Origin: Deltaproteobacteria bacterium
Lineage (GTDB): Bacteria; JAMCPX01
Reading direction: 5' to 3'
Assembly (NCBI GenBank): GCA_023382265.1
Contig: JAMCPX010000017.1
Location: forward strand, 4,838-68,837
DNA: 64,000 nt
The notes below the pieces were generated by a model that saw only the letters and a list, made by a program, of their open reading frames with translations, made no database searches and had not been told where the DNA came from. Positions 5,799 through 59,020 of the stretch are shown piece after piece. Position 1 is the stretch's first letter, and every line of letters starts with the position of its first letter. Made by a program: the position numbers and the translations under genes.

Positions 5799-6893
5799 TT
5801 ATCCTTTTGCCCACCTGTTTAATTCAAGAGGTATCAAGTAGTATGGTAAAACGCGATCTACCTTTCCGGTTGCTATTGCCTCCCTCGGCATGCCGAAAAC
5901 AACCGCCGTTTCTTCAGATTCTGCTATTGTATATCCGCCGGCATCCTTTATCATCTCAATCCCTTTTTTACCGTCATTACCCATACCGGTCAACACGACA
6001 CCCGAGCACATACTCCCAAACCTTTTGGCGGCAGAAGCAAACATTTCATTAACGGATGGAACAAATTTATCTGTTTCCCTTTTTGGAATGAGATGGGCTA
6101 TCTTTTTATTACCTTTAGTACCTATGGATATGCTGTATCCGCCTGGTACAACTAAAGCATTGCCTCTGTGTAAAGCGTCTCCGTCTTCTGCTTCCTTAAC
6201 GTTAAGATGAGTGTACTTGTTAAGCCTTTGAGCAAATGTAGATGTAAACCCGGGCGGCATGTGCTGAGATATAACAACACTTATATTAAGCTCCCTCTCC
6301 AATCCGGCAAGTATCCTCTGCACTGCAGACGGTCCTCCGGTGGATGATCCGATTGTTATAAGTTTGAAATCATTATTCATACTAAACGGTTCACTTTCAG
6401 GACTGTTAATCTGGACTATAGGCTTTGATGAAACATCTATACCTAAATTTAACTTAGCATTTATATCGGCAATCCTCCTTTGAACATTATGAAGATTTAT
6501 AGACCGAATACTCAACACCTTTTTTATAATATCTTCCTTTATAGAATAAAGTTCCATCGATATTCTTTTTGTCGGCTTTGGTATAAAATCTACTGCACCA
6601 AGCTCCATTGCTTTAAATACACTCTCCGAATCGGAAAGAGCACTGACAACGATTGTTGGAGTCGGTTTTGTTCTCATCAGAATTCGCAGGAAGGTAAAAC
6701 CATCCATTTTTGGCATTTCGAGATCGAGGGTTATAATATCTGGAGAAAGCACCTTTATTTTTTTTAGAGCATCTTCACCATCCGTGGCTGTTCCTACGAC
6801 GACAACATCAGGAATTGATTCAAGGATATTCTTTATTGCCCTCCTGTTAAAGGCTGAATCATCTATTATTAAAACCTTGGAGACCTTATTCAT
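5799..6893 (-). CDS. cheB: chemotaxis response regulator protein-glutamate methylesterase CheB
   Basis: N-terminal REC (VLIIDDSAFNRR...DIITLDLEMPKMDG) plus a C-terminal methylesterase domain (GSSTGGPSAVQRIL, HMPPGFT, GMGNDG). Confidence 0.9.
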   Translation of the reverse strand: MNKVSKVLIIDDSAFNRRAIKNILESIPDVVVVGTATDGEDALKKIKVLSPDIITLDLEMPKMDGFTFLRILMRTKPTPTIVVSALSDSESVFKAMELGAVDFIPKPTKRISMELYSIKEDIIKKVLSIRSINLHNVQRRIADINAKLNLGIDVSSKPIVQINSPESEPFSMNNDFKLITIGSSTGGPSAVQRILAGLERELNISVVISQHMPPGFTSTFAQRLNKYTHLNVKEAEDGDALHRGNALVVPGGYSISIGTKGNKKIAHLIPKRETDKFVPSVNEMFASAAKRFGSMCSGVVLTGMGNDGKKGIEMIKDAGGYTIAESEETAVVFGMPREAIATGKVDRVLPYYLIPLELNRWAKG

Positions 6894-7762
6894 TTTGCAG
6901 GTTTCCTATATACAAGATCATTTTTAAGCTGGACAAGTTTAAATACATTTGTAACACATATTAATGATTCTGCATGTCCAAGCAATAACCAGCCATTATC
7001 AAACAGCTTTTCGTAAAAACGTTCGGCGAGTTTTTTCTTGGATTCGGTATCAAAATATATCAAAACATTTCTGCATATTATTGCATCAATCCGAGGGAGT
7101 AGATTCATCAAGTTTGAGTCCATAAGATTGATCCTTGATATCTTAACCATATTTTTTATCTCATCCTTTATTTTATACCTGCCTTCGTAAGGTTCAAAGT
7201 ACTTTTTCTTATAGTAATCATCAATTACTCTGAAAGATGATTGTCCGTATATGCCCTTACGGGCTATTGCAAGGACCCTCTGGCTTATGTCGGAAGCTAA
7301 TATCTCAAGATTAAAATCTTTATCCACTCCATACTCTTTTGCTAACATAGCTATCGTATAAGGTTCTTCACCCGTTGATGAACCGGCACTCCATAACTTT
7401 AAGGAAGGCTTTGACGAATAAGCCTTTTCTACCTTTAATGTGGGAATAATTTCCTCAAATAATGCCTTTATCTGGGGAAGTTCTCTAAAAAAATATGTTT
7501 CGTTAGTTGTTAATATATCTACGATTGCGCTAAGTTCCTCTTCTTTAGCCTTGTCGTATTTTAAAAACAGATAATAATCACGGAATGAATTTAATTTTCT
7601 GAAAGCAAGTCTGTCTACGAGTCTTGATTCTATCAGATATTTTTGCTCTTCAGAAAAAAAGATACCGGTATAATCCTTTATGAAATCCCGCAGTTTGTGA
7701 AAATCTTCGTCCTCCAGCACCACTTTATTATTACCCTGTTCCTGAATCACTATCCGATCCAT
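6890..7762 (-). CDS. cheR: chemotaxis protein methyltransferase CheR
   Basis: CheR all-alpha N-domain followed by a SAM-binding block (LKLWSAGSSTGEEPYTIAML). It overlaps cheB by 4 nt. Confidence 0.9.
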   Translation of the reverse strand: MDRIVIQEQGNNKVVLEDEDFHKLRDFIKDYTGIFFSEEQKYLIESRLVDRLAFRKLNSFRDYYLFLKYDKAKEEELSAIVDILTTNETYFFRELPQIKALFEEIIPTLKVEKAYSSKPSLKLWSAGSSTGEEPYTIAMLAKEYGVDKDFNLEILASDISQRVLAIARKGIYGQSSFRVIDDYYKKKYFEPYEGRYKIKDEIKNMVKISRINLMDSNLMNLLPRIDAIICRNVLIYFDTESKKKLAERFYEKLFDNGWLLLGHAESLICVTNVFKLVQLKNDLVYRKPAK

Positions 7763-9684
7763 CGAATATTATCTTTTTGAGTAACAATAACCTGTTTTAT
7801 TTTGTCATCACTACTCGATAGAAGTTTTTTAAGTATCTCCTGAGCACTACCGGTTTTGCTTTTCCCTACTATCTGGATCGCTTCTGAAATTACATCGACA
7901 TCTCTACCGGCTAAAGTATTCTCTATATCTGCACCCGCATCCTTGCACTGTAAATTTACAATATTCTGGAGTGCTGTAAGCATAACTATGGGTGATTCAT
8001 CATAGAGATACGGTTTTAACAATGGATAAGCTTCTTCCGAATTATTAAAACAAATAAGGTTTTTGACAATCTCCGCCCTAATCCATGGATCTTCATCATT
8101 TGAAATCCATTTAATTGTTTCTATAAAATGTTCCGGCTCTATCAATGATACCGTTCTTATAGCTTCTATCCTTACATCTCTATTCTCGTCTGTTAATGCC
8201 ATTTTAATATCTTCAACATAGGTATGCAGTTTTATTTCTCCGATTGTTAATATAATGGCTGCTCTTACAGCAGGTTCGCTGTCGTTAAGCAGGGTTTTCA
8301 CATAATCATCCGAATCTTTGTTATAGAAACTTTTTATAAGCTTTGCAGCGGACAATCTTAAACGATAATCCGTACTGTGGACCATGTCTTTAAGCAAATT
8401 AAAAGGAAAAACCTTTAACCTTTGGCCGACTTTTACAAAGTTGTTAATAATGTGATCCTGAATCTCATTTACGGATGAAGTTATAATCTTCATAAAGAGT
8501 TTTAAACTATTTTCATGTATATAATTACCTATAACATCGGAGAGAAGCATAAGTATATCAGGCTCATCCGTGTATTTTATTATGTAGGATAAACCTTCCG
8601 GGTACGGGTTCTGTTCTTCAGGAAGATGGGATAAATACTTTAAACCAAGTCTTATGTGATATATGTTATTACTTCCTATGAGCAAACCAATTACATCTTC
8701 CTTTACCTGATCATTGAGATCCAATAACGCACTCAGGCATGCATCCTGCATTTCAGGTTCTTCTGCATATCTGAAAATAAGATTCAGGCTGCTTGCTATT
8801 CCTGACCAGCCGGCAATCCTGATACCCGCTGCTCTTGCATGTGGATTAATGCTTGATAATAGTTTTTCTATTAAAAACTGATCATATAGATGCCCGTTTT
8901 TCACTTCGTTTCGTACGTACGACTTACCCTGTTCATCCAGACTCAAGTATAACTTGAGCATGGACTGTGCAGCAGCTTCCATGTTTATCCTTTTTGTATC
9001 TCTTATTCCTTCGATTAAGTATTGTACGGCATGAGCTTCATGGCTTGAACCAAGCAGATCGTAAACAGCCTTTTTGAATAATGGATCGTTTAAAAGCGGG
9101 ACAACATTCTGTATGGGTATTTTGAATCCTCTTTGTCCAAGGTTTGCAATGGATTCAACAGTTGAAAAAACAACATATAATTCCTTTTCTCTTAAAAGCT
9201 CACACAAATCATTTACAATATCCTGAGTTCCAATCTTTCCAAGAGCTTCTATAGCAGCGGTAGCAAGGTTTTGTTGTTTAACGTGCGTTAGAGCCAAGAG
9301 AGTCCCGATCGCTTTAGGGTCATTTAGCTCACCTATGACATCTACAAGAAGTTTTGACAGCTCCCAGTCTTCAGGGTTTATCGCCCTTAATATTTTTTTT
9401 ATCCCATGCCTGCCAATCCTTGTGAGTCCTTCTATGCCCGCTGTCCTGAGCCCCGCATTATTATGATCGGAAAGCATATCTATAAATATATCAATAAGTT
9501 TATCCTTAGAATATATCTGTAGAATCTCATCGATCGCGGCCTTTCTTACTCTGAAACTCTCATCACCGAGTAGAGATTTGATCACATGAACATTCTCATC
9601 GTAAGAGAATTTATCCAGGCTTTTTGTTAACCGTATTTTCTCTTCTTCATTTAAATCCGTTGTCGTTAGTTTGTCATCCGTCAT
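7750..9684 (-). CDS. HEAT-repeat (PBS-lyase-like) protein encoded inside the chemosensory operon
   Basis: 644 aa of repeated roughly 30-aa helical units (D/ExxxRxxAxxALGxIG-like: VRKAAIDEIL, TAAIEALGKIG, VRAAIILTIGEI, VRIEAIRTVSLI). It overlaps cheR by 13 nt and the next gene by 1 nt. Confidence 0.7.
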   Translation of the reverse strand: MTDDKLTTTDLNEEEKIRLTKSLDKFSYDENVHVIKSLLGDESFRVRKAAIDEILQIYSKDKLIDIFIDMLSDHNNAGLRTAGIEGLTRIGRHGIKKILRAINPEDWELSKLLVDVIGELNDPKAIGTLLALTHVKQQNLATAAIEALGKIGTQDIVNDLCELLREKELYVVFSTVESIANLGQRGFKIPIQNVVPLLNDPLFKKAVYDLLGSSHEAHAVQYLIEGIRDTKRINMEAAAQSMLKLYLSLDEQGKSYVRNEVKNGHLYDQFLIEKLLSSINPHARAAGIRIAGWSGIASSLNLIFRYAEEPEMQDACLSALLDLNDQVKEDVIGLLIGSNNIYHIRLGLKYLSHLPEEQNPYPEGLSYIIKYTDEPDILMLLSDVIGNYIHENSLKLFMKIITSSVNEIQDHIINNFVKVGQRLKVFPFNLLKDMVHSTDYRLRLSAAKLIKSFYNKDSDDYVKTLLNDSEPAVRAAIILTIGEIKLHTYVEDIKMALTDENRDVRIEAIRTVSLIEPEHFIETIKWISNDEDPWIRAEIVKNLICFNNSEEAYPLLKPYLYDESPIVMLTALQNIVNLQCKDAGADIENTLAGRDVDVISEAIQIVGKSKTGSAQEILKKLLSSSDDKIKQVIVTQKDNIRWIG

Positions 9685-10625
9685 TATGATATGCCCAATT
9701 CCTTTTTCTTCCTCGTTATCAGTTCATTAAAAGATGCTGCAAGAAAATCTTCTGCGGTTCTTATATGTTCAGGAATCCTTTTCTCAAAGTATCTATTTCC
9801 TTCCTCGATATCATCTCTCAGCAATTCCGAAAAATTTCCGTGTCTTACTCCCTCCTCAACCAACTCCTGGTTGTAAAGTGCAATATCCGATACAATAATT
9901 CTTGCAAGTCTTCTTGCCTTTTCTATTTCTTCCTTATCTAAGGGTGTTTGTACAAATCCCTCTTCTTTTAATCTCTTTATATCTTCTTTACGAAGTTCCG
10001 GGATTGTTGTCTCCACTCTCTCTGTTCCTGTCTCTGCATGTTCTATGGGTTTCTGAGGTTCTTGAATTTCTTCCAGTTTTATTAAAAGTTTGTTTATCTT
10101 GGCAATCAAATGATCTCTTATATGATGTTTCTCTATAAAATCATTGGCACCGTAAAGGCTCTGCGGCATACGTTTATAACGGGTTTTATCGTATATGGAA
10201 GCTATAAGTATAACTTTTATACCGTGAAGTCTTTCATCATTTTTTATCATCTCCGGGAACTCAAATCCAAATATCTCGGGCAAAGCTACATCAACAATAG
10301 CTACATCCGGATGTGAGTTCATCATAATGGAGATAGCCTCTATGCCGTTTTTAGCAAATAAAGGCACATAACCTGCTGCTTTTATAATAACACCAATCAT
10401 ATCCCTCATTGCATTACTTGAATGGGCGATTAGTATTTTTCTTACTGCCCTGTCATGATGCGGCTTGTTTGGCTCATTATTCGCTTCTTCACCTATTGCT
10501 TGCGATTTTTTCCTCAACATAAAGATAGCTTTGCATTTTGAACACCTTATCTTAATCTTATTAGAAGATAACTTATCTTCAAAAAGTTTGTATTTGGTTG
10601 AGCATACAGGACAGCTTACAATCAT
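9684..10625 (-). CDS. MJ0042-type zinc-ribbon + receiver (REC) domain protein with an uncharacterised C-terminal region
   Basis: N-terminal CPVCSTKY...CSKCKAIF zinc ribbon. A REC domain follows, with a conserved acidic pocket (ILIAHSS...VAIVDVALPEIFGFEF...KVILIAS). The C-terminal roughly 120 aa is helical, charged and unassigned. Confidence 0.65.
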   Translation of the reverse strand: MIVSCPVCSTKYKLFEDKLSSNKIKIRCSKCKAIFMLRKKSQAIGEEANNEPNKPHHDRAVRKILIAHSSNAMRDMIGVIIKAAGYVPLFAKNGIEAISIMMNSHPDVAIVDVALPEIFGFEFPEMIKNDERLHGIKVILIASIYDKTRYKRMPQSLYGANDFIEKHHIRDHLIAKINKLLIKLEEIQEPQKPIEHAETGTERVETTIPELRKEDIKRLKEEGFVQTPLDKEEIEKARRLARIIVSDIALYNQELVEEGVRHGNFSELLRDDIEEGNRYFEKRIPEHIRTAEDFLAASFNELITRKKKELGIS

Positions 10626-10633
10626 AAAATGGT

Positions 10634-12748
10634 TTATACCTTAAACATCTTTATTATATCGTGAAGAACCTTAGCCTGTTTATCTAGCAGTTTTGAAACC
10701 TCATTTAGTTGGGATATGCTTGCTACATTCTCTGAGGAACCTTCTTTAATCCTGTTCAAAGATGATGCAACAATATCATTCGTTTTGGCCTGTTCCCGTG
10801 TTGCTTTATTTATGAAATTTACCATCTCCGTTATATTTTCTATAGCCTGACTGATGAATTTGCTGCTTTTAGCCTGCTCTTCCATCGATTTCTTGACCTG
10901 CTCTGAAACTCCCCTCATCCTTTCAGCAGCACTTGTTATCTGTTCTGAACCCCTTGCCTGTTCCTGTGTTGCCTTTGCTATCTCGACCATCATGGTAGTT
11001 ATATTTGTAATAGCCTCTGTTACTTCTTTTGATGCCTTTGCCTGTTCCTGTGTTGCCTTTGCTATCTCGGATGACATTAAACTGGATTTGGCCGAGCTTT
11101 CCGATATCTTCATAAGTACGGCGCCGGCTTTGTTTGCAAGTTCGCTGCCTTTTTCTACGGTTTCACTGCCAAGGATAACAGACTCCCTTGCCTGCATGGA
11201 TTCAGCCTGTACAGCCCTTATTATATTTGTGATCTCCTTTGTGGATGATGCCGTTCTTTCTGCAAGTTCTTTTATTTCATCCGCCACAACTGCAAAGCTT
11301 TTTCCATACTCACCGGACTGTGATGCGATAATTGCCGCATTAAGGGCAAGCAGATTTGTTTGATCGGTAACTTCATCTATCACATTAAGTATCTTGCCTA
11401 TATCATCTATTTTCTGGGTAAGATTATTTATTGTATCCTCCACATGATTAGAGGCTTCTTTTATCTTCTGCATGCCGTCTATTGTAATATTAACAGCCTC
11501 AACACCATTCTTTGCATCGCTCATAACCTGGTTGGCTATGGAAGCCGTTTCGTTTGCATTTGTTTCGATCTGTTTTGTAGATGCATCCATTTCTACTACA
11601 GAAGCGGCTGTTTCGTCTGTTATTTTAAGTAATTGATCTACATTGTCGGCAACCTGTTTGATAGAAGCACTCATCTCTTCTATTGATGATGTTGTTTCTT
11701 CAATAGAGGAAGAAAGCATCTCAACGTTTTCAAGCACCTCTTCTATACTTGATGACAGCTCAAGTACGGATGATGAGCTTTCTACCGCGGATGAATGGAG
11801 CGTTTCTGTATTTGTTGCGATCTCCTTTATGGAGGCATTTAACTCCATCATGGATGAAGAATTTTCTTCAACCGATCTTTGCTGAAACCCTGATGTCTCA
11901 AGAAGTTTTCCGGCATTATCGGATATCCTTCTAACAATTTCTGTCGTATCAGATGATGCGTTCTGTATGCGTTTTAGTATGTCTCTTAAATTCGAAGACA
12001 TGGTATTAAATGAATTTGCAAGCATGCCGATCTCATCTTTTGATTTTGCAGATACCGTTTGGGTAAGGTCTCCTTCTGATATAAGAGACGCCTTTTCAGC
12101 TATAACAGGGATCTGTCCTATGATCCTCTGAACAAAAAGAAACGTTATACCAGCACCGATTATGAAATTCATGAGAACGATAAGTAATGCGCCCCATATA
12201 AATGATACGATCTTTTTTGATATACCGGCAAGAGACATGCCGAGATACACATAGCCCTGAACCGTTTTAGCCTGCTGCAAGGCTCCGCTCGCGTTTGGCT
12301 TGGAACTCTCTGTGACAACATCCTTGTTTACTTCAATGAATTGTCCGATATGGTGAATGGTAATTGTCGTGTTATGATTTTTTGCCGTTCTGAGTATTTC
12401 AGCTAAAAAATTTGCTGTCGCCTTATTCCTGTATTTAGATGCAAGCGTTACTCCGTTTGCATCCGTTATAACAACATAACTTACATCATTATCCTTAAAC
12501 ATATTATCTATAAGTTCCTCAAGAACAACTCTATCCTGAGCAATAACACCAAACCGGACATTGTAAGCGAGGTCCTCCGCTATCGTATTACCCCTTTTAA
12601 CAAATTCCACCTTATCGAGTGATCTCATAAGGAATAGATAATATAAGCTGTAGACAGTGCTAAGTGCTATGATTCCCCAGAGTATGTAAATAATGAATTT
12701 AAGCCTGAGGCTATATTTGACATTCTCCAACTCTCCAAAAAATTTCAT
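10634..12748 (-). CDS. mcp: methyl-accepting chemotaxis protein (two TM, roughly 150-aa periplasmic sensor, HAMP, long signalling domain)
   Basis: Highly conserved MCP signalling hairpin ([41 protein letters not shown]), a HAMP region after TM2, and long heptad-rich arms. Confidence 0.9.
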
Positions 12749-13287
12749 CTTGTGCCTCCAGTTTTTTGTTTTTTATCCTTAAAAATTAATTTCTCGAATT
12801 GTATTTTCTCTGTTGTCGAAAGGATTTTATCCAGCTCAAGAACCATGATGATCCTTTTTTTATCGCTGACAACACCGGAAAGATACTCAGAACCAATGCC
12901 TTTTGCTATTTGCGGCGGCGGCATAACCTTGCTCTCAGGAACTTTTAACACCTCTTTAACTTCATCAAGGATTAAACCTGCTACCCTATCCAGAACCCTT
13001 ACTATAACTATACGGGCATTTTCATCGGGTTTGTCGGATAGCACATCGAATCTCTTTCGCATATCAACAATAGGTATGATCGTTCCTCTGACATCAATGA
13101 CGCCTTCAAGAAAATCCGGTGCTTTGGGAACTTTTGTAAATGGTGTGTATTTTATAATCTCTACGATTTTATTTATGTCAATTGCAGAATAAACATTCCC
13201 GATTTTTAATACTATGAACTGTTTAATAAGCTCTTTCTGATTAACGTTTTTATCAAGTTTTTGCGTATCACTATTCTTTGTATTCAT
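12745..13287 (-). CDS. cheW: chemotaxis coupling protein CheW
   Basis: 180-aa single CheW domain ([14 protein letters not shown]...[17 protein letters not shown]...GLILDEV). Confidence 0.85.
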
Positions 13288-13290
13288 ACA

Positions 13291-13965
13291 TTAAGCCTTT
13301 AACATATCGGACGATTTTATTATTTCTTTAAGGTTCAATACAACAGTAAATCCACCATTATAAGTGCTTATCCCTGATAAAAACTTAACATCCACACTAC
13401 CGGAAACATTGGTAAGCTTGATAGAGTCGGAAGAGATCCTTTTTACATTTGTTATTTTATCCACTACAAGCCCCAAAGCTGCATTATCCATATCAACCAT
13501 AACAAATCTCGTATCTGTGCCAAAGTTTAAGAAGGGTAAACCTATACGCGTTCTCATATCTATTAAAGGCATGATCCCACCCCTTAGCACTACTATACCG
13601 AGGACGAACTTGGCTGTATTGGGTACGGGCGTGATATCTCTGACCCTTATTATTTCCTTTACCAAAGAGATCTCTATTCCATACTCTTCCTCGCCGAGAT
13701 TAAAGCATAGAAGTTCTTTTTCACTGTCCAGTGGTGTATACTTTTTTAGTTCATTATGTGCAAGTTCAAGTAAAGTATGAGGCTCCGTAGATACAGGTTT
13801 CCTCTCCTGATCCGGTTGTGATTCTATCAAAGGCTCTTTAATCCGGTTCTTTTCGCCTTGCTCTTGAGAAGACATTATCCCGGGTTCTTTTTTTTGTTTC
13901 TCTTTAAGTTTAGCAAACTTCTCTGATTGCTCTTTTGCCTTTTTTCTTAACTTCGATATATCCAT
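13291..13965 (-). CDS. CheW-like coupling protein with a KE-rich N-terminal extension
   Basis: CheW domain (LCFNLGEEEYGIEISLVKEI...IVVLRGGIMPLIDMRTRIGL...LGLVVDKI) preceded by a roughly 70-aa charged low-complexity region. Confidence 0.75.
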   Translation of the reverse strand: MDISKLRKKAKEQSEKFAKLKEKQKKEPGIMSSQEQGEKNRIKEPLIESQPDQERKPVSTEPHTLLELAHNELKKYTPLDSEKELLCFNLGEEEYGIEISLVKEIIRVRDITPVPNTAKFVLGIVVLRGGIMPLIDMRTRIGLPFLNFGTDTRFVMVDMDNAALGLVVDKITNVKRISSDSIKLTNVSGSVDVKFLSGISTYNGGFTVVLNLKEIIKSSDMLKA

Positions 13966-13966
13966 T

Positions 13967-14776
13967 TTAGGTTAAACTTATCCTGACATCATCTATAATT
14001 GCATTTATAGATTTATCATCGATCATTTCAAGCTCTTCACCATAACCATAAAGCAACGCATTGTTGCATAATGTGTTTATAGATCTCGGAATGCCTTTTG
14101 AGTATTTGTATATCATATCTACAGCGGAAGATGTAAACAGAGGTTTATCCCTGCCCGCGACATTTAATCTAAAATATATGTATCCCTCAACCTCTTCTCT
14201 GCTGAGTGAACCAAGATGAAAAGCAACCCCTATCCTCTGTCTGAATGCATCGTAATACTTTGTCTGTATCCTTTTACGAAATTCGGTTTGACCGATAAGT
14301 ATTATGCTTAAAAGATTCATATTATCAAGCTGATAGTTTGTTAATAAGCGGATTTCATCTATTGTGCTTTTTGATGGAATCAATTGTGCTTCATCTATTA
14401 TTATAACCGGAACCGTATTTTTATTATAAAGGTCTGAGATCTTATCGCTGATCTGTTCTATTATCTCATATTTGAAGTATCTGAGATCCTCTATCCCAAG
14501 CCTTTTTGCAACGGTTTTTAAAAATTGGGTCGGAGAAAGTCGTGGATTGATAATATTTATAATTGTATAGTTTCCCTCAAGACTATCCATTACACTTCTC
14601 GATATTGTAGTTTTGCCCGATCCTATATCACCCGTAAGAACAGCGAGCTCTTTTTCCTGTATTGCAAACAAAATCCTTTCGTATGCCTCTTCGTGTTGTT
14701 TTGACTTATACAAAAATTTGGGATCGGGTGTTTTATTAAAGGGCTTTTCTTTTAATGAATAAAACTCTTCGTACAT
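13967..14776 (-). CDS. ExeA/GspA/MshM-like AAA ATPase (AAA_22) embedded in the chemosensory operon
   Basis: Colinear match to the ExeA/GspA N-terminal ATPase (YxxFYxLKEKPFxxTPDPKFLYxS...LTGDIGSGKTT Walker A...IIIDEAQ Walker B...KGIPRSIN). It lacks the C-terminal peptidoglycan-binding region. Confidence 0.75.
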   Translation of the reverse strand: MYEEFYSLKEKPFNKTPDPKFLYKSKQHEEAYERILFAIQEKELAVLTGDIGSGKTTISRSVMDSLEGNYTIINIINPRLSPTQFLKTVAKRLGIEDLRYFKYEIIEQISDKISDLYNKNTVPVIIIDEAQLIPSKSTIDEIRLLTNYQLDNMNLLSIILIGQTEFRKRIQTKYYDAFRQRIGVAFHLGSLSREEVEGYIYFRLNVAGRDKPLFTSSAVDMIYKYSKGIPRSINTLCNNALLYGYGEELEMIDDKSINAIIDDVRISLT

Positions 14777-14777
14777 A

Positions 14778-16784
14778 TTAACCCCTTACCACTTCTTCCA
14801 CAAATATAGATACATCTATTACAAGAACGATTTCGCCTGAACCCACATCAGCAGCACCGGAAATACCTTTTACGCCTTTCAATAATTTACCGAGAGGTTT
14901 GATAACAACATCCTGCTGCCCGATAAGGCTGTCGGTCAATATCCCTATCAATCTTTCACCAACACCCACCTCAACGACATAATAGTGATCCGGACTTTTA
15001 TCTTCCTTTTTACCGAAATCCAAAACCCTTGATAGTCTTACAACCGGTAAGACAGTATCCCTGAGTTTGATTATTTCTCTATTCTCTACAGTTCTTATAT
15101 CCTCTGAACGTATAAAAATGCTTTCATTTATTGAGTTTAGAGGAATAGCATATCTTTTGCCGTCTGCCTCAACGATTAAAGCCTGAATAATGGCAAGCGT
15201 TACCGGCAGTGTAAGTTTGGTTCGTGTCCATTTACCTTCCTCTGTTTCTAAATCTATCATACCGCTTATTGCTCTAAGATTTGTTTTTACAACGTCAAGT
15301 CCAACTCCTCTGCCCGATATTTCGCTCACGTCAGACTTTGTAGAAAAACCTGGCAGAAATAACATGCTGAATAATTCATCCCTGGTTGGTTTTGAGGATG
15401 ATGAGAGTAACCCGCTTTCTACAGCCTTTTTTCTAATAGCTTCAAGTGATATTCCTTTACCATCGTCTTCTATTTCTATAATGACATGATTGCCTTTTTG
15501 ATATGCACGTATCGATATCCTGCCTTTTTCCGGTTTACCCGATAGTAGTCTTTCCTCTGCTTTCTCTATTCCGTGATCTATTGAATTCCTTATTATATGC
15601 ATCATTGGATCTGTCAGCTCTTCTATAATCAATTTATCCAATTCCGTTTCTGCACCGTAAAAAGACAGTTCCATTTCTTTGTTGAGACTTTTAGCGATCC
15701 TTGTAGCTGTTCTTGTGAGTTTATCAAAAAGCTGGCTCAAAGGGATCATCCTTATATCAAGAATACCGAGCTGAAGTTCATTCAGTTTCATCTCCAGTCC
15801 TTTCAATATTTTGGCAAATTCAACGGCTGTACCTTTAAATCCAGTCTCCTGCCGTAAGGTCTCTAATGTTCTTAAAAGGTTTGTTTTGAAAAGGATAAGC
15901 TCACCTACAATATTCATGATATGATCAAGCTTCGCTATGTCAACCCTTACAGTCTGAGCTATACCCTTTATCGACGTGGTCTCATCAATACCCGATGAGA
16001 CTACGGATTGCGAGCCGTTATTATCATGTGTAACGGCGGCAGACTCTTTTTGATTTCTCAAGTTTTGTACTTCCAAATTTTTAAAATCCAGGGCACTGCG
16101 TATTTTGTCTTCCGACTCTTTCGTTCCAATAATGATATCGAATTTTATTTCGTTTTCTTTTGCCTCTGTTGTGCTTGGAAGTGTAGTAATAAGCTCTCCA
16201 AAACTTTTTAATTCAGCAGTTAAATCGGATAGCTCTTTATCAAAACTCATAATATTAAAAATTGTTTCTATCTTAAATATGTCGTTGCCCTCCTTGATGT
16301 TTTCTCTTAACCTTGATTCCTCATACTCCGTGAGAACACCCAGTATGTCCTTGTTTAATGAGAGTAACGAAAATATATCGTCCTTTTTCTCTTCCGGTTT
16401 ATCATTCTCTGCATCTAAAAGCTTTTTGAGCAGCGGTTCTATATCAGTGCCTCTGCCGAAATTTTCCGAAGAGACCATTGTTCTCAAAAGATCGCCTGCA
16501 GAGTACAAAGCATCTATAAGCTGATCCGAAATCTTAACTTTACTCAGTCTTACTTTATCAAGCAGATCCTCCATCTTATGGCTTGTATCTGTAACTTCTT
16601 TGAAACCAAACATACTGGATATCCCCTTCAGGGAATGTGCCGCACGGAAAAGATCGTTTATTACATCTGGATCGGGCTTAGCCGTCTTTCTTGCATTGTC
16701 TATGATAAGAACGTCCTCAAATAATTTATCTATAAGCTCTTCCGCCTCTGCAATAAATTCTTTTGTTGCTTTATTTTGTTCCAT
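14778..16784 (-). CDS. cheA: chemotaxis histidine kinase CheA
   Basis: P1 HPt (RAAHSLKGISSMFGF), dimerisation domain, HATPase (N, G1 DDGKGI and G2 GRGVGLDVV boxes), and a C-terminal CheW-like P5 domain. Confidence 0.9.
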   Translation of the reverse strand: MEQNKATKEFIAEAEELIDKLFEDVLIIDNARKTAKPDPDVINDLFRAAHSLKGISSMFGFKEVTDTSHKMEDLLDKVRLSKVKISDQLIDALYSAGDLLRTMVSSENFGRGTDIEPLLKKLLDAENDKPEEKKDDIFSLLSLNKDILGVLTEYEESRLRENIKEGNDIFKIETIFNIMSFDKELSDLTAELKSFGELITTLPSTTEAKENEIKFDIIIGTKESEDKIRSALDFKNLEVQNLRNQKESAAVTHDNNGSQSVVSSGIDETTSIKGIAQTVRVDIAKLDHIMNIVGELILFKTNLLRTLETLRQETGFKGTAVEFAKILKGLEMKLNELQLGILDIRMIPLSQLFDKLTRTATRIAKSLNKEMELSFYGAETELDKLIIEELTDPMMHIIRNSIDHGIEKAEERLLSGKPEKGRISIRAYQKGNHVIIEIEDDGKGISLEAIRKKAVESGLLSSSSKPTRDELFSMLFLPGFSTKSDVSEISGRGVGLDVVKTNLRAISGMIDLETEEGKWTRTKLTLPVTLAIIQALIVEADGKRYAIPLNSINESIFIRSEDIRTVENREIIKLRDTVLPVVRLSRVLDFGKKEDKSPDHYYVVEVGVGERLIGILTDSLIGQQDVVIKPLGKLLKGVKGISGAADVGSGEIVLVIDVSIFVEEVVRG

Positions 16785-16787
16785 GAG

Positions 16788-17156
16788 CTATCCTATATAC
16801 CTTTTTATAAACTTTTGAAGCGCCTCAGGCTTAAAGGGTTTAACAAGGTATTCGTTTGCACCAAGCCCGATACCTTTTTTCCTGTCATTCTCTGTTCCCT
16901 CTGTAGAGATAATGATTAGAGGTATATCTTTATACTGCTCATTTTTTCTTATAAAATTTATGAGTTCAAGCCCATTTATGTCAGGCATATTTATATCCGT
17001 TACGACTAGTTGAAATCTTACCTGCGGCAGCAGTTTTAGAGCTTCAAAACCAGTTGGAGCTTCATAGATATCATAGTCACCAACACTTTCTATAGCGGAG
17101 GAAATAAATGCACGCATGGTAGCGGAATCCTCTACAATAAGGATATTGTCTGTCAT
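16788..17156 (-). CDS. cheY: chemotaxis response regulator CheY
   Basis: 122-aa single REC with the conserved Asp pocket (ILIVEDSATMR...LVVTDINMPDINGLELI...PLIIISTEG...KP). Confidence 0.9.
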   Translation of the reverse strand: MTDNILIVEDSATMRAFISSAIESVGDYDIYEAPTGFEALKLLPQVRFQLVVTDINMPDINGLELINFIRKNEQYKDIPLIIISTEGTENDRKKGIGLGANEYLVKPFKPEALQKFIKRYIG

Positions 17157-17158
17157 TA

Positions 17159-18835
17159 TTACTTTCGCTCCTTTAGCATTCTTTCAAGATAAGACTTTTC
17201 CATAACCACACTTGCCTGATTCATAAATATCTCAAAGGCTGTCATATCGCCGATTGGCTTTTTAAAGGGGACATTATCACCGTAGAATATGGCTGCAACT
17301 CTATTTGCCGTTAAGAGTGGTATAACATAGCATTCGATAGGCCAGACGCCGCCAAGCTGATCTATAAATCGCTTATTGGCTTCTGTATGCTGCGGCTCTG
17401 CTTTGATGGGCCTTTTGTATTGCATTACCCTGCCCAGTATTAAATCATCATCTATTTTGATCTCCATTTTTTTTATAACCATATTGGGATTTTTAAAAAA
17501 AGACTCAAGCCCGAATTGTCCGAGCCCTTTTACATTGTTCTTTTTGACAAGAAATAAGACGCCTCTGTTGAGGAGTTCACTTGCAAACCTCATTGTAAGC
17601 AGTGTTACCTCGCCTGTAAAATTTGGATGCATAAGTTCATCAATCATTGATTTCAAAGTAAGCAATCCGGGACTTGATTCGGTTTTAAGTATGGGGCCTT
17701 CCGGTAAAAGGTCTGTTTCATTAACAAACTCATTCGTTAATTCCTCTGTTATATCCTGTATAAGTTTGTGTCCTGCATCATCTTCTTCTTTTATTTCCTG
17801 TTTTGTTGTTACCACTTCCTTCCACACAGGTTTAAATGTAAAACCTGCCTCATGATACTGCCTCATAAGGGTTGAAATCTTTTCAACTATATCCATATAG
17901 GTATCAATTTCATTCAAAGATCTTGAGAATTTCTTCGGCTTTTTTAAATATGCGTACACACCAAGCATCTTGGCCTCTTTTAAAACTTCTTCATTGTTTA
18001 CACTGCTCAAAAGTATAATCGGTATCTTTAGTTTTTTTTCTATTGTCCAATTAAGAAGTTCCAGACCGCCAAGCATACCCTCACCTTTAGTTTTTGGTAT
18101 GGCAAGTTCGGTAACGATTAAAGGAAACCTTGGTGAATCATGTATAGATTCAAGATAGTTATAAAGCGTCCTCAGATCATCCATAACAGTTATTTTCAGT
18201 CCTCTTGACTCAAGGCTTTCTTTAAAAAATGACTGTGATTCTGTATTGGGATCAAGAATAATAATCTCTTCCATCTCCATTAACTTCGGTTCCATTTCTT
18301 CTGTAACAGAAATCGGCGTACTCTCGGCTCTTTTTTGTTCATCGATTTGGCGCACAGCTTCCATTGCCACGTACTGAGGATTAATAGGAACAGATAAATA
18401 ACACTCATACGCATTTATCAAAACATTCCTGTCACTCGCTTCACTCAGTTCAAAGTTGAAATTTCCCTCTTTCCATTCAAAAAAGTTAAATATGATTGAT
18501 GTCACATACGATTTTATAAATTCATCAATGCCCTCTTTATCAATAACATTTGAGTTTATCAAAAGAGATCTCGGATCCTCGATCTCTTCAACCCTGATAC
18601 GATCGTACATCTTTTTTTCCAGTTGTTCTGTAAGGATACCTTTATTTTTAAGTAATCCCAATATATTATTAGGATTGGATGATATTGATGCGGATATGAG
18701 CTGACCATCAGAAAATACAAGTTTACCTTCTTCACCCTTCTTCGTAAGATAAAGAATTCCAGACCGCCTGCTAAGGCTTACTATCTGTAGTATATCACCA
18801 AGAGCTAAATCCTCAAGGCTACCTATTAAACTCAT
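17159..18835 (-). CDS. DUF4388 (PatA-N-like) domain protein with a degenerate receiver-like domain and a GAF-like C-terminus; first gene of the chemosensory operon
   Basis: The N-terminal GSLEDLALGDILQIVSLSRRSGILYL matches the DUF4388 signature. The central REC-like fold (KITVMDDLRTL...PLIVTELAIPKTKG...IILLSSV) has the phospho-acceptor position replaced (TEL for D). The C-terminal roughly 150 aa is GAF-like. Confidence 0.55.
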   Translation of the reverse strand: MSLIGSLEDLALGDILQIVSLSRRSGILYLTKKGEEGKLVFSDGQLISASISSNPNNILGLLKNKGILTEQLEKKMYDRIRVEEIEDPRSLLINSNVIDKEGIDEFIKSYVTSIIFNFFEWKEGNFNFELSEASDRNVLINAYECYLSVPINPQYVAMEAVRQIDEQKRAESTPISVTEEMEPKLMEMEEIIILDPNTESQSFFKESLESRGLKITVMDDLRTLYNYLESIHDSPRFPLIVTELAIPKTKGEGMLGGLELLNWTIEKKLKIPIILLSSVNNEEVLKEAKMLGVYAYLKKPKKFSRSLNEIDTYMDIVEKISTLMRQYHEAGFTFKPVWKEVVTTKQEIKEEDDAGHKLIQDITEELTNEFVNETDLLPEGPILKTESSPGLLTLKSMIDELMHPNFTGEVTLLTMRFASELLNRGVLFLVKKNNVKGLGQFGLESFFKNPNMVIKKMEIKIDDDLILGRVMQYKRPIKAEPQHTEANKRFIDQLGGVWPIECYVIPLLTANRVAAIFYGDNVPFKKPIGDMTAFEIFMNQASVVMEKSYLERMLKERK

Positions 18836-20229: not shown

Positions 20230-22845
20230 TTAAGGTAATTTCTGTAATGTATCATTAAGTATCGTCAGTATATAGGTTGGGTTGTGTATGCCAAGACTGC
20301 CGTCGCTATTAACAAGTGCGTAGTTCCAGCCTGCTTCCAAAACCGTCGTGGTTAGAGGATTTGCTGCACTATTGATCCAGAATACAGGACCCGGGGCAGA
20401 ACCTGTTGTTGCTGTTATAGAACCCATCGCAAGTGTGAATGTTGCGTTAGAGGAATCCCACAACTGGTAGCCCTGCTGTCCGTGCACCTCCGAGAATGCC
20501 GCTGCCGTTACAGGAGTTGCGATTGTCTTGGTGTTTGAGGCCCATATTGTATAACCTGATGAAGCTGAAAAGTTGATTGCAGCGATTACAGTATTAGAAA
20601 GGTTCGTTTCAAGCTGATTCAGTAAACCCTGAACCTCTGTTTGTAAGCCGTAGCCTGTAACACCCGATCCATGACAGTTCTGACAGATCGTGCCCTGGTC
20701 CTGTGGATTGATTGTCCATACATGTGATGAAGGCGCACCTCCTGGATTGTTTGGATTATAGACCATGTGACATGTTACGCATGTATCTGCAATGTTTGCG
20801 TGCTTTGACACATATATCGTGGTTGTGCCTGTAATACCTGTAAAGTATGAGCTTTGGCCCATCAGTATGTCTGCCTGCGAAGGTGTATGAGGCGCAGAGT
20901 AATCAGCTACTGGAACAGAGTCATTCCTTAATCCATTTCTTGTATTATGACACTCCATACAAATTGCACCCGCACCTACCGAGTCCGCAGTAAACCCTGC
21001 TGCAAGTGTAAATGTGTTGCCGTAAACTCTTAGCTGATCAGGGTTGGCGGCATTATGGGGATCATGACATGCCTGGCATGTTTGAGGTTGAACCTGCGAT
21101 ACTGTAAGCCCTAAAGCTGCAAGCTGGGTAAGATTAAGACCAACGAGGTTTTGCATGCCATTGTTTACGCCAGAAGAAACCTGGTCAATATATGCATTAA
21201 ATCCCTGTGCAGAGTGACATCTTCCACAGTGTGCCGCATTTGAACCCATTCCCTGGATTGTTGCCTCTGAAAGTGATAAGTCAAGATTCGCATGAGGTGA
21301 TATTGCCCAGTCAGGGCCATTTGAATCATGGCACTGACTGCATACCCCTGCATCCCATCCAACCCTTGCCTGTAAATCATAAGCCTGGTTGGTACTGTGA
21401 TGTGCTTGTGAGTTACTTGGGCCGTGGCAATTCTCACATTGTATATTGGAAAGTGCTGCAAGCCCTGCATAATTTGAAAGCATATTTGTCCAGTTTGATA
21501 ATTGAAGAGTGTCCGGAAATGCCCACCCAAGGGTTTTCATCACATCGTCAAACCCATCGTTATTCGCGAGCGGCGCCTGATCATAACCAACAGTATGACA
21601 GCTCAAACACACCTCATTAGTAGTTAAAGGTATTGGAGAGGAGTCATAGGGCGGGATATCTGCCGGTTCATATCCAGAAGGACCAACAGTGCCGTCTCCG
21701 ATTAATCCCTCAATACCTCTTGTAAACATACTCGCATGTTGAGTCTGAAACCATGGTGCAAAATTACCTGTAATAGTGCCGTTATGACATGCGCTGCAGC
21801 TTGAATTTGAATACCCGCCGGAACCATCAATAGCTCCCATCCATGTTCCTGCTGCAATTGTGAAATAAATACCCGTAGTCGTTTCTTTTATTGTATATAA
21901 ACCCGCTACATCAGGAGTAAATGTTACAACTGTGTATGGGCTTGCTGCTACATTTGTTACAACAGCATTAGAGCCTGCTGGTTTTGATATAATTGATATT
22001 GACGGTGTGGTTGATGTAAAACTAAGGTACACGGGAGTTCCGATACCCACATTTTCTATACCCGCTGTTTTACTCGCGGCTCTTACCATTATTTCCGATA
22101 CCGCTTGAACGCCGGCAGGATTTGTCACATAAAGTGTAAGTCTGTATAAACCTACTTGCGTTGGTCCTATTGATATAATGCTGTCTCTGCCCTGATCGGG
22201 TGTTATACCATTAACCTGAGACATCATTGGATCCGTCGTAAAAGTAATTGATGCTGTTGTTGCTCCCGGTATCTGAGTTTCAACCCCCCCATACTGAGGG
22301 TACGGAATAACTGTCCATGTATAAGAGAGTGCTGACGCTGGATAATTCTGATCTGTTACATTTGCAGATATATTAACAGCTGCATTATATCCTACATTGT
22401 AAAGCCCGACATCATAAGCATCCATATAATAATTAGATGGCCACGTAATCAAAGAAGGCTGCAAACTCAATGGGGCCAAAGCTAATGATACTGATACCGT
22501 AACCGTTGAGCCTGCCGCTACTGCAAAGTACCCTGAAGTATACTGTGCATATCCTTTTGCACTGACCACCACCTGATACGGACCCACTGGTATGTTAGGA
22601 AAACTGAATTTACCCTGCGAATCGGTAGTAGTTGTTGGAAGAACTGCAGGAATCAATGCTACTGTAGCATTTGAAACAGCCTTGCTGCTTGAACTATCAA
22701 CGACAACTCCAGCTATGGTTCCTGTGCTTAATCCTGCCTTACCCGCAGGTCCGGCAGACCCTGCGGCACCTGTTGAACCTTTACATCCTGTAATACTTAT
22801 AGATATCAGGATGCTTGCTAAAAAGAACAAACCTTTTAATTTCAT
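20230..22845 (-). CDS. secreted nonaheme c-type cytochrome lipoprotein with N-terminal carboxypeptidase-regulatory-like and Ig-like domains
   Basis: Lipoprotein signal (LISISITGC), a short G-x-x collagen-like stretch, and a CarbopepD_reg-like beta-sandwich (GTIAGVVVDSSSSKAVSNATVAL...QGKFSF...GPYQVVVSAKGY). Nine CxxCH motifs follow: CSACH, CLSCH, CENCH, CSQCH, CGRCH, CQACH, CMECH, CVTCH, CQNCH. Confidence 0.85.
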   Translation of the reverse strand: MKLKGLFFLASILISISITGCKGSTGAAGSAGPAGKAGLSTGTIAGVVVDSSSSKAVSNATVALIPAVLPTTTTDSQGKFSFPNIPVGPYQVVVSAKGYAQYTSGYFAVAAGSTVTVSVSLALAPLSLQPSLITWPSNYYMDAYDVGLYNVGYNAAVNISANVTDQNYPASALSYTWTVIPYPQYGGVETQIPGATTASITFTTDPMMSQVNGITPDQGRDSIISIGPTQVGLYRLTLYVTNPAGVQAVSEIMVRAASKTAGIENVGIGTPVYLSFTSTTPSISIISKPAGSNAVVTNVAASPYTVVTFTPDVAGLYTIKETTTGIYFTIAAGTWMGAIDGSGGYSNSSCSACHNGTITGNFAPWFQTQHASMFTRGIEGLIGDGTVGPSGYEPADIPPYDSSPIPLTTNEVCLSCHTVGYDQAPLANNDGFDDVMKTLGWAFPDTLQLSNWTNMLSNYAGLAALSNIQCENCHGPSNSQAHHSTNQAYDLQARVGWDAGVCSQCHDSNGPDWAISPHANLDLSLSEATIQGMGSNAAHCGRCHSAQGFNAYIDQVSSGVNNGMQNLVGLNLTQLAALGLTVSQVQPQTCQACHDPHNAANPDQLRVYGNTFTLAAGFTADSVGAGAICMECHNTRNGLRNDSVPVADYSAPHTPSQADILMGQSSYFTGITGTTTIYVSKHANIADTCVTCHMVYNPNNPGGAPSSHVWTINPQDQGTICQNCHGSGVTGYGLQTEVQGLLNQLETNLSNTVIAAINFSASSGYTIWASNTKTIATPVTAAAFSEVHGQQGYQLWDSSNATFTLAMGSITATTGSAPGPVFWINSAANPLTTTVLEAGWNYALVNSDGSLGIHNPTYILTILNDTLQKLP

Positions 22846-51831: not shown

Positions 51832-52527
51832 TTAATGTTTTTTGTCTTGCTCCGAGAGTGTTTCTTTGAATTCGGCTAATGTAAAAATGCCCTTTTTTAT
51901 AAGAATCGCTATTAATGCTTTTATGAATGGCTGCAATTGATTCTCTAAAGGTTCTTCAGTATTTTTTTCAAGTTCATCCTGTTTGATATGAGAATCTATC
52001 TGATATTTGTCCATTTTAACAGAAAGCTCTTCATCCTTTTGTGTTAGAATGGGCTCGTTAATCTTTGCAGGCAGAGGTTTATCTTTATAATAATAATTTA
52101 TAAAATCAGAAATCGTTGATTCCAGCGCGAGGACGGGTTGAATCTTATAACCAACCGCAAACTGAACTGCATCTATTGCTTCAAGGTTTGTAGGATCCGA
52201 CATTGCCAAATACAGACTGGGCTTGCCTGATGCAGCCTTGATTGCTAATGGTAAAATATTATATTTTTCCACAGTCTCAACATGTATGAGGTTAAGAACT
52301 TTTTTATCTATTGTAATCTTATAAAGATCAACCATTTGTATACCAAGCTGTTTACTGAGGAATTTGAGAATATCCATATCTTTTAAGAAACCTAATTTTA
52401 CGATTACTGTACCAAGCCTGCCTCCGTATTGTTTCTGATTCGATAGTGCAACTCTTAATTGTGTTTGATCTATAATACCATGTTCCAATAACATCTCACC
52501 AAGTTTTTTGTGAGCAGGTGGAGTCAT
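51832..52527 (-). CDS. standalone MshEN (T2SS-E N-terminal) domain protein, candidate c-di-GMP receptor
   Basis: Tandem 24-aa MshEN motifs with a 5-aa spacer: KLGEMLLEHGIIDQTQLRVALSNQ-KQYGG-RLGTVIVKLGFLKDMDILKFLSKQ. They are followed by the rest of a GspE_N fold and a short helical C-terminal tail. Confidence 0.7.
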   Translation of the reverse strand: MTPPAHKKLGEMLLEHGIIDQTQLRVALSNQKQYGGRLGTVIVKLGFLKDMDILKFLSKQLGIQMVDLYKITIDKKVLNLIHVETVEKYNILPLAIKAASGKPSLYLAMSDPTNLEAIDAVQFAVGYKIQPVLALESTISDFINYYYKDKPLPAKINEPILTQKDEELSVKMDKYQIDSHIKQDELEKNTEEPLENQLQPFIKALIAILIKKGIFTLAEFKETLSEQDKKH

Positions 52528-53309
52528 TTTAGATGCTGTTTCAGATCAGATTCCTTCATAATACCGCTGTCAATCAAAGTTTCTATAAGTGAATATAAGA
52601 CAGATTTGGTTTCCTTACCCGATAGAGTATTTGAGAGTTCTTGTGATAGCCCCTTTTTTGTACCAAGTGTTGAATCAAGAATTGCTTTTGCTTCTTCAGG
52701 CAATTCATTATCGGTTATTGTTGTAGATACGGACTGACCGCCAGGTTCATCGTGCATTATAACCATTTCCTCTGCATTTGAAGAATTTGTTACTTTTGGC
52801 TCATTTGGTGGTTGTTGTTCACCATTATTTACAGGTATTGCATTTCCAGGCATAAATTCTTCAACAGGATTATAATATTTTTTGATTGCGTTTGCTATAG
52901 CATTATCCGATGCCAAAACAGTTTTTATCGTGTATCCTGTTACGAATTGAAGTTCATCAAGGGATTCAAGGTTTGTAGGATCCGACATTGCTATAAACAA
53001 TACCTTTTTACCGCCTTCTATTTTTATACCGAGCGGTAAGACATTGTTCTTGGTTGCTATTTCCTCAGGAATTAATTCGATTGTGGATGGGCTGATCTTG
53101 ATCTTATCTATAGCTACATAGGGTATTTGTAACTGCTGGCTTAGAAACTTTAAAAGCTTTTCTTCTGTTATGAACTTAAGCTTTACCAGATTATTACCAA
53201 GCCTGCCTCCCCATTTTTGCCTTTCTGCAAGAGCAGCACGTAATTGGAATTGGTCGATAAGCCCGGCCTCAAGGAGTAAATCACCCAATCTCTTTTTACT
53301 TGTATTCAT
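52524..53309 (-). CDS. standalone MshEN (T2SS-E N-terminal) domain protein, paralogue of the previous gene
   Basis: RLGDLLLEAGLIDQFQLRAALAER-QKWGG-RLGNNLVKLKFITEEKLLKFLSQQ, then a GspE_N fold, a Pro/Asn-rich linker and the same C-terminal tail (LYSLIETLIDSGIMKESDLKQHL vs FIKALIAILIKKGIFTLAEFKETL). It overlaps the paralogue by 4 nt. Confidence 0.7.
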   Translation of the reverse strand: MNTSKKRLGDLLLEAGLIDQFQLRAALAERQKWGGRLGNNLVKLKFITEEKLLKFLSQQLQIPYVAIDKIKISPSTIELIPEEIATKNNVLPLGIKIEGGKKVLFIAMSDPTNLESLDELQFVTGYTIKTVLASDNAIANAIKKYYNPVEEFMPGNAIPVNNGEQQPPNEPKVTNSSNAEEMVIMHDEPGGQSVSTTITDNELPEEAKAILDSTLGTKKGLSQELSNTLSGKETKSVLYSLIETLIDSGIMKESDLKQHLK

Positions 53310-57259: not shown

Positions 57260-57261
57260 TT

Positions 57262-57846: not shown

Positions 57847-57861
57847 TGAAGAGGGGATATT

Positions 57862-58464: not shown

Positions 58465-58477
58465 AAAAGGGTAATGT

Positions 58478-59008: not shown

Positions 59009-59020
59009 AGGGGGCATAAA

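Follow-up and report, generated by a model that had tools for sequence, protein, structure and literature searches.

An ExeA-family ATPase module encoded between cheA and cheW: a probable component of a conserved chemosensory pathway

ExeA-type ATPases are known as parts of larger envelope machines. In the type represented by ExeA of Aeromonas hydrophila, a cytoplasmic ATPase is joined to a membrane segment and a periplasmic peptidoglycan-binding domain, and MshM, the ExeA-like ATPase of the MSHA pilus operon, is likewise tied to a larger machine. What, then, is an ATPase of this type doing inside a chemotaxis-like (che) operon? The question was raised by a 64,000-nucleotide (nt) stretch of DNA, here called the window, from a Deltaproteobacteria bacterium (GenBank assembly GCA_023382265.1, contig JAMCPX010000017.1, positions 4,838 to 68,837 of the forward strand), in which such a gene lies between cheA and cheW. 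An original prediction, made from the letters of the window, proposed that the gene links chemosensory signalling with the assembly of secretins or pili. We found that its linkage to cheA is very strongly conserved, far beyond the source genome, and that the ATPase is very probably a component of the chemosensory pathway. The gene and the codons of its catalytic motifs are located as follows.

13967-14776, minus strand: ExeA-family AAA_22 ATPase, module only, 269 amino acids (aa), ATG start (open reading frame and Pfam)
14609-14632, minus strand: codons of Walker A, GDIGSGKT, residues 49-56 (read from the sequence)
14384-14407, minus strand: codons of Walker B, VIIIDEAQ, residues 124-131 (read from the sequence)

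Both the placement of this open reading frame between cheA and cheW and its reading as a 269-aa ATPase-only protein, as originally predicted, were borne out by the open reading frame calls and by Pfam. AAA_22 (5.5e-20) was the sole domain, and beyond it only overlapping P-loop families matched. The gene is real, since its protein has homologues with E-values down to 1e-167 and matches 5302 proteins at E<1e-5. The start codon is right, since the N-terminus (MYEEFY...) coincides with the N-termini of the homologues. Among 65 homologues, G49, G52, G54, K55 and T56 of Walker A and D128, E129 and Q131 of Walker B were invariant, as were about 45 residues outside the two motifs. The gene is tightly packed between its neighbours. 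Between the cheA stop and the ATPase ATG there is a single base (14777), as had been predicted, and a Shine-Dalgarno-like AAGGGG lies inside the 3′ end of cheA, 8-9 nt 5′ of that ATG. The junction between the ATPase stop and the cheW ATG also consists of one base (13966); the 2 nt originally given for it was a coordinate difference.

A profile built from twelve homologues (A1) was searched against 1.84 billion cluster representatives and found 37,369 relatives at E<=1e-3 and 12,073 at E<=1e-30. About 20 short proteins scored highest. The ranking after them consisted mostly of proteins of 360-950 aa, the first ~266 residues of which matched profile positions 1-265 at about 260-270 bits. The sampled long members ended in PG_binding_1 (P0146, P0149) or SPOR (P0143) domains. 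Escherichia coli K-12 GspA was rejected as the ExeA reference because it was too divergent (BLASTP E=0.25, no NCBIfam match), and representatives bearing PG_binding_1 served in its place. Forty-four positions were conserved at >=90% in the che-linked clade and at >=80% in 137 other modules. The family-wide residues common to both included the PF..PDP N-terminus, GxxGxGKT, DEA, R143 and N147, together with GQ162-163, QR180-181 and G228-P-R231. Because these residues are shared and the whole 269-aa protein aligns end to end with the N-terminal ATPase module of the PG_binding_1 proteins (P0146 and P0149 match 1-265, ~270 bits), the window protein is, judged by sequence, a genuine ExeA-family ATPase module, and that module alone. 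A grouping with generic AAA_22 ATPases unrelated to ExeA was thus not what the shared residues and the alignment indicated. Unlike ExeA/GspA, however, the protein is without a membrane segment and without a peptidoglycan-binding (PF01471) or SPOR domain, and its gene lies in a che operon with no gspB/exeB or secretin neighbour. It also belongs to a separate clade of short forms. In a neighbour-joining tree of 167 modules, built without bootstrap, 24 of the 26 short (<300 aa) representatives fell with the window protein in one 39-member clade.

The best NCBIfam match was TIGR03015, the XrtA/PEP-CTERM ATPase, which aligned with the window protein end to end (residues 1-265 of 269) at 247.6 bits, although this score did not reach the cut-off of 324.5 and the window context is not an exopolysaccharide (EPS)/PEP-CTERM locus. 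Clade members scored 197-255 bits against this model, short forms 191-255 and long PG_binding_1 forms 308-318; no ExeA-type module among those tested reached the cut-off. The match is generic, since every tested ExeA-type module matches the model. A sister relationship to the PEP-CTERM ATPases was therefore rejected, the long forms scoring highest.

The AlphaFold2 model of the ATPase (pLDDT 92.9) was a compact AAA+ base plus lid. Its nearest folds in the Protein Data Bank were those of ORC/Cdc6, MuB, TnsC and RuvB (TM score 0.65-0.73, 13-17% identity). When solved structures were searched by sequence, no ExeA ATPase domain was found, only weak matches to midasin, MuB and TnsC. The likeness to ORC/Cdc6, MuB and TnsC is one of fold only, because identity is 13-17% and there is no DNA-related context. 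A block of residues conserved specifically in the clade (132-154: L132, P134, T138, T146, Q149, L150, D151, N154) is a candidate partner surface. The fusions seen among the 150 closest cluster representatives were tandem double AAA_22, PG_binding_1 and SPOR. Three proteins closest to the clade profile (P0121, P0127, P0135; ~600-690 aa) contained two tandem ExeA-type AAA_22 modules, a hint that the module functions as a dimer or larger oligomer.

We then surveyed the neighbourhood of the gene in other genomes. A one-genome-per-species scan used as anchors the peptides DEAQLIPxK and KTPDP[RK]FL[YF], in which residues specific to the clade occur, and found at least 585 relatives, of which the 80 best form the basis of the genome-locus counts. 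Neighbours were scored by tblastn with the window Che proteins, and the upstream count used loci whose upstream DNA spanned at least 2.1 kb. In all 70 of these species-level genome loci the ATPase was immediately preceded by cheA on the same strand, cheY lay upstream of cheA in 69 of 70, and cheW followed the ATPase directly in 72 of 75. Most of these loci were from Nitrospirota/Thermodesulfovibrionia; others came from Desulfuromonadales/Geoalkalibacter, Gallionella/Betaproteobacteria and unclassified metagenome-assembled genomes. The possibility raised at the outset that the linkage to che genes would not be conserved in related genomes was thus contradicted across phyla. The cheA stop and the ATPase start were no more than 10 nt apart in 43 of 78 loci, and 26 had an identical 8-nt overlap. 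In minimal forms (L002/L029, L081), CheY-CheA-ATPase or CheA-ATPase is followed by unrelated genes. CheA is the most constant neighbour, since the CheA-ATPase pair persists without an adjacent cheW or mcp (methyl-accepting chemotaxis protein, MCP) gene. Beside the minimal CheY-CheA-ATPase set of L002, a 402-aa Ras/Arf-like small GTPase protein is encoded (10846-12054, minus strand of that locus), followed by a GAF-GGDEF protein. Among more distant representatives of 50% clusters, P0130 had the order receiver domain (REC)-CheA-ATPase and P0126 the order ATPase-CheW-HEAT-CheR-REC, and P0125 adjoined an MCP fragment. P0133, from a neighbouring subclade, lay in an EPS-export-type locus with pseudopilin-like genes, not in a che locus.

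In the window the ATPase is one of 11 minus-strand genes that form one packed run (5799-18835), whose members overlap or are separated by gaps no longer than 8 nt. In operon order, the other genes are these.

17159-18835, minus strand: PATAN (DUF4388)-REC protein, 558 aa, first gene of the operon (DUF4388 1.3e-24, Response_reg 3.9e-08)
16788-17156, minus strand: CheY, single-domain response regulator, 122 aa (Pfam Response_reg 2.9e-27)
14778-16784, minus strand: CheA histidine kinase, 668 aa (Pfam Hpt, H-kinase_dim, HATPase_c, CheW)
13291-13965, minus strand: first CheW, 224 aa, with a Lys-rich N-terminal extension (Pfam CheW 4.5e-31)
12745-13287, minus strand: second CheW, 180 aa (Pfam CheW 1.7e-34)
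10634-12748, minus strand: transmembrane MCP, 704 aa, with sCache_4, HAMP and MCPsignal (Pfam)
9684-10625, minus strand: Zn-ribbon-REC protein, 313 aa (Pfam Zn_ribbon_4/5 and Response_reg)
7750-9684, minus strand: HEAT-repeat protein, 644 aa (Pfam HEAT_2 6.5e-46)
6890-7762, minus strand: CheR methyltransferase, 290 aa (homology to the Pfam CheR_N/CheR genes of L001 and L005)
5799-6893, minus strand: CheB methylesterase, 364 aa, last gene of the operon (homology to the Response_reg/CheB_methylest gene of L001)

The complete genome CP070770.1 (L001), whose ATPase is 56% identical to that of the window, has the same 11-gene order: PATAN-REC, CheY, CheA, ATPase, CheW, CheW, MCP, Zn-ribbon-REC, HEAT, CheR, CheB. 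A PatA_N gene occupies the position equivalent to the window PATAN-REC gene in L001, L004 and L005. The ~250 C-terminal residues of the window PATAN-REC protein had no Pfam match, and its equivalents in L004 and L005 were PATAN alone, 374-384 aa. A scan of the operon for promoters and terminators gave counts no different from those of shuffled sequence.

The content and order of the window operon (CheY, CheA, the ATPase, CheW, and further on Zn-ribbon-REC, HEAT, CheR and CheB) are those of the beta-group/Esn clusters of Geobacter and the Che8 type of Myxococcus. In G. sulfurreducens, GSU2223 (cheY), GSU2222 (cheA, esnC), GSU2221 (labelled "ATPase"), GSU2220 (cheW, esnB), GSU2219 and GSU2217 (REC) follow the same order as in L062, a Desulfuromonadales locus with an ATPase that shares 50% identity with that of the window. 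GSU2223, GSU2219, GSU2217 and GSU2212 are named cheY40H-1 to -4 in a published supplement (PMC5585712). From synteny, we infer that GSU2221 is the orthologue of the window ATPase: it occupies the same slot between cheA and cheW, with the same flanking cheY/REC order. The Geobacter beta-group is cluster 5 (MCP class 40H); it has been reported as conserved in delta-proteobacteria, its regulation of extracellular matrix was reported from unpublished data, and it has no mcp gene (PMC2577667), whereas the window cluster has one. In an electrode transposon-sequencing (Tn-seq) experiment, log2 values were -2.8 for cheA, -2.1 for GSU2221, -2.4 for cheW and -2.4 for the MCP EsnA (PMC5585712). Clean deletions of esnA, esnB, esnC and esnD, the last encoding a distant GGDEF response regulator that the phenotype needs, blocked electrode colonisation and did not block Fe(III) oxide reduction (PMC5585712). 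Since its score resembles those of cheA, cheW and EsnA, the ATPase groups with the receptor-kinase core. Through the synteny-inferred orthology, the value for GSU2221 is the sole experimental datum for the clade. The Geobacter che-cluster paper (PMC2577667) makes no mention of the ATPase, and the Tn-seq paper (PMC5585712) does not discuss it; in the literature searched, GSU2221 carried the label "ATPase" alone, and no account of an ExeA-like ATPase in a chemosensory system was found there. The arrangement is therefore not a new kind of system, since it is already visible in annotated Geobacter genomes with one fitness datum; it is a variant, in which a chemosensory pathway has probably recruited an ATPase module of the ExeA type.

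We propose that the protein is a soluble AAA+ ATPase of the ExeA/GspA module family, catalytically intact by its motifs, and a dedicated accessory of one chemotaxis-like class, the Geobacter beta-group/Esn and Myxococcus Che8 type. It would be made together with CheA and CheW from one packed operon and would bind the signalling core formed by CheA, perhaps with CheW. ATP binding and hydrolysis might then act as a switch on the assembly, stability or activity of the CheA complex, in the way that ORC/Cdc6, MuB and TnsC build and release assemblies using ATP. A role at the core is preferred over one in output because the ATPase sits between cheA and cheW, because CheA is its invariant neighbour, and because the Geobacter phenotype is shared with the MCP, CheW and CheA while the relevant response regulator is encoded elsewhere. 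As the overall best explanation, an accessory of the Che core with an ATP-dependent switch or assembly role has, in our judgement, an even chance of being right. A switch or assembly mechanism at the core complex specifically is a tentative suggestion, to which we give somewhat less than an even chance. The evidence draws no sharp line between the models.

Several observations weigh against this proposal. In the converse test, metagenome loci were fetched with an alignment of CheA, and 67 were testable. The ATPase directly followed cheA in 47 of them (and in one more, L145, just outside the distance filter), but 19 had no ATPase and kept CheY-CheA-CheW-CheW, some with MCP, Zn-ribbon-REC or HEAT. 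Che8 of Myxococcus xanthus also appears to be an ATPase-less version, judged from the consecutive locus tags of CheA8 (MXAN_4758) and CheW8b (MXAN_4757) (PMC3945109). Since these clusters lack the ATPase, the core can work without it. No column of the CheA alignment separated clusters with the ATPase from those without it (>=90% versus <=30%), and no fusion with CheA, CheW or REC occurred among the 150 closest cluster representatives. Partial distance correlations were 0.37 for CheA and 0.64 for CheR, so that CheA was not singled out. The Tn-seq effect of GSU2221 may be polar on cheW. Finally, the homologue search reached Desulfuromonas and Geothermobacter, and no named Geobacter protein was among the matches listed.

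The ATPase-less loci were L095, L103, L104, L114, L115, L122, L124, L130, L132, L136, L144, L148, L153, L158, L160, L164, L166, L168 and L171; their CheA proteins were 37-46% identical, and Zn-ribbon-REC and HEAT were often kept. In a neighbour-joining tree of 136 CheA sequences they formed three or four groups. The presence or absence of the ATPase tracked this tree, with 5 parsimony changes over 136 loci. Among 31 complete clusters, evolutionary distances of the ATPase correlated with those of CheY, CheA, CheW, CheR and CheB at r = 0.85-0.96, and across all che genes the mirror-tree correlations were 0.78-0.96. Mirror-tree and partial correlations were consequently rejected as pointers to a specific partner, as all che genes correlate. 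The ATPase is thus a vertically inherited yet dispensable component outside the minimal core, and it is an accessory because related CheA clusters without it exist.

The CheA protein has a feature of its own. Residues 151-166 of the window CheA (~16287-16334, minus strand) contain a class-specific motif, LTEYEE[SH]RLRENIKEG, in the P1-P3 linker, where P2 normally lies; 8 of its 16 positions were invariant in six CheAs. Its EYEE core was kept in 115 of 117 loci with the ATPase and in 16 of 19 without it, so it is independent of the ATPase.

The alternative that survives best places the ATPase at the output end of the pathway, as an effector switched by CheY~P or CheA that controls export or assembly at the envelope, for example of exopolysaccharide or matrix. 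This is possible, though we consider it rather unlikely. The minimal conserved unit, CheY-CheA-ATPase, is what such a role would predict, and all other known contexts of the module are envelope machines (the PG_binding_1 and SPOR fusions and the EPS-export locus of P0133). The Geobacter beta-group is said to regulate extracellular matrix (PMC2577667), and Esn mutants fail at electrode colonisation (PMC5585712). However, by Pfam the ATPase has no receiver, membrane or periplasmic domain, and within 10 kb there is no conserved export or secretin gene. Its gene sits between cheA and cheW, not with output regulators, and the phenotype in Geobacter needs the distant EsnD.

Positioning or segregation of the chemoreceptor array is an improbable role, although there are precedents. 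Chemoreceptor arrays are positioned by the ParA-like proteins ParC in Vibrio and PpfA in Rhodobacter, both of which are products of che operons. The window ATPase could be their analogue, perhaps with nucleotide-dependent binding to DNA or membrane like that of MuB, as its gene is similarly embedded in a che operon beside cheA and cheW and its fold neighbours MuB, TnsC and ORC are ATP-dependent DNA-binding oligomers. It nevertheless belongs to another ATPase family. It is an AAA+ protein of the AAA_22 type with a classical GxxGxGKT Walker A and no ParA/CbiA match in Pfam, whereas ParC and PpfA are of the ParA/MinD type with the deviant KGGxxK[ST]. In addition, the cognate MCP is transmembrane, and no ExeA-type module is known to bind DNA.

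The coupling to a secretin or pilus that was originally proposed was suggested in part by PilQ and MshEN proteins elsewhere in the window, which were indeed present. MshEN is a domain type known for binding c-di-GMP.

59021-61585, plus strand: PilQ secretin, last gene of the pil operon (Pfam secretin)
51832-52527, minus strand: stand-alone MshEN protein, 231 aa (domain match)
52524-53309, minus strand: stand-alone MshEN protein, 261 aa (domain match)

In this model the ATPase would link signalling to the assembly of PilQ or of an MSHA or type IV pilus, as ExeA does for the type II secretin. Homology to the ExeA module and the occurrence of PilQ and two MshEN proteins in the window are in keeping with it, as is a case in Pseudomonas aeruginosa, where an ExeA-like gene beside pilMNOPQ affects piliation, with PilQ multimers unchanged (PMC6321873). 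We consider the coupling very unlikely. The membrane and peptidoglycan-binding parts that would mediate the action of ExeA are missing from the window protein. The pilM/N/O/P/Q operon (56206-61585; PilM, PilN and the secretin were confirmed by Pfam, and position is the basis for PilO and PilP) is of standard form, followed by aroC, and lies on the opposite strand more than 41 kb from the ATPase; together, the PilQ operon and the MshEN genes are 37-45 kb away. A search of 85 related loci for homologues of PilM/N/O/P/Q, the secretin included, or of MshEN within 10 kb gave none, and the genes flanking the che cluster differ from genome to genome. Compared by context only, the gene resembles mshM and the P. 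aeruginosa gene PA5037/PA14_66580, upstream of pilMNOP (PMC6321873), in encoding an ExeA-like ATPase, the products of both of those genes being tied to a larger machine, but it is in no msh operon and neither in nor next to a pilus operon. Action of the ATPase on a secretin is therefore not likely, and the proposed link was left unsupported.

The tandem MshEN genes themselves are divergent from a sigma-54 response regulator gene (53632-54996) and lie upstream of a lipoprotein gene and pilMNOPQ. If the pathway has any link to type IV pili, the PATAN-REC protein is conceivably a better candidate for it than the ATPase; PATAN domains bind PilB1 and PilC of the pilus motor in Synechocystis (bioRxiv 10.1101/2021.06.11.447907).

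Lastly, that the ATPase is a passenger without a chemosensing role, such as a remnant of a mobile or secretion-related locus, might be read from its loss from several related clusters, but it is highly improbable given the synteny with cheA in 70 of 70 loci across phyla, the invariant catalytic residues, an ATPase tree that mirrors the che gene trees and the tight translational coupling with cheA.

Some neighbours of the che clusters were also recorded. Just upstream of the window operon lies a gene for a lipoprotein-like protein of 871 aa that contains nine CxxCH haem motifs (20230-22845, minus strand), for which tblastn found a homologue in L040 only. The CheA-ATPase-CheW trio of L004 is directly followed by genes for two multihaem cytochromes, of 873 and 335 aa (9479-13191). 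Given the tie between the Geobacter cluster and growth on electrodes, these haem proteins may be of relevance. Further along the window (27950-30253, plus strand), a 767-aa fusion protein joins a Ser/Thr protein kinase domain to one of the FGE-sulfatase type (formylglycine-generating enzyme-like).

Signalling pathways that resemble chemotaxis systems but have outputs other than motility are widespread, and they are poorly understood. The clade described here stands beside cheA in at least several hundred species-level genomes, including those of Nitrospirota, relatives of Geobacter and iron oxidisers. Among the recognised chemosensory accessories (CheC, CheD, CheV, CheX, CheZ and the ParA-like positioning ATPases), we know of none that is AAA+. 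It is possible, although on balance doubtful, that the ATPase represents a previously unrecognised accessory class: an AAA+ protein, like ORC or MuB, that binds CheA and through ATP gates the assembly, turnover or kinase output of a non-motility array. The cytoplasmic ExeA module would then be a general switch for ATP-dependent assembly, recruited separately by different machines associated with the envelope (secretins, pili, EPS exporters and receptor arrays). The Geobacter cluster is needed for electrode colonisation (PMC5585712), and G. sulfurreducens is genetically tractable, so the question is directly testable there. A defined role for the ATPase would give chemosensory signalling a new component, and it could also reveal the function of the cytoplasmic ATPase half of ExeA/GspA.

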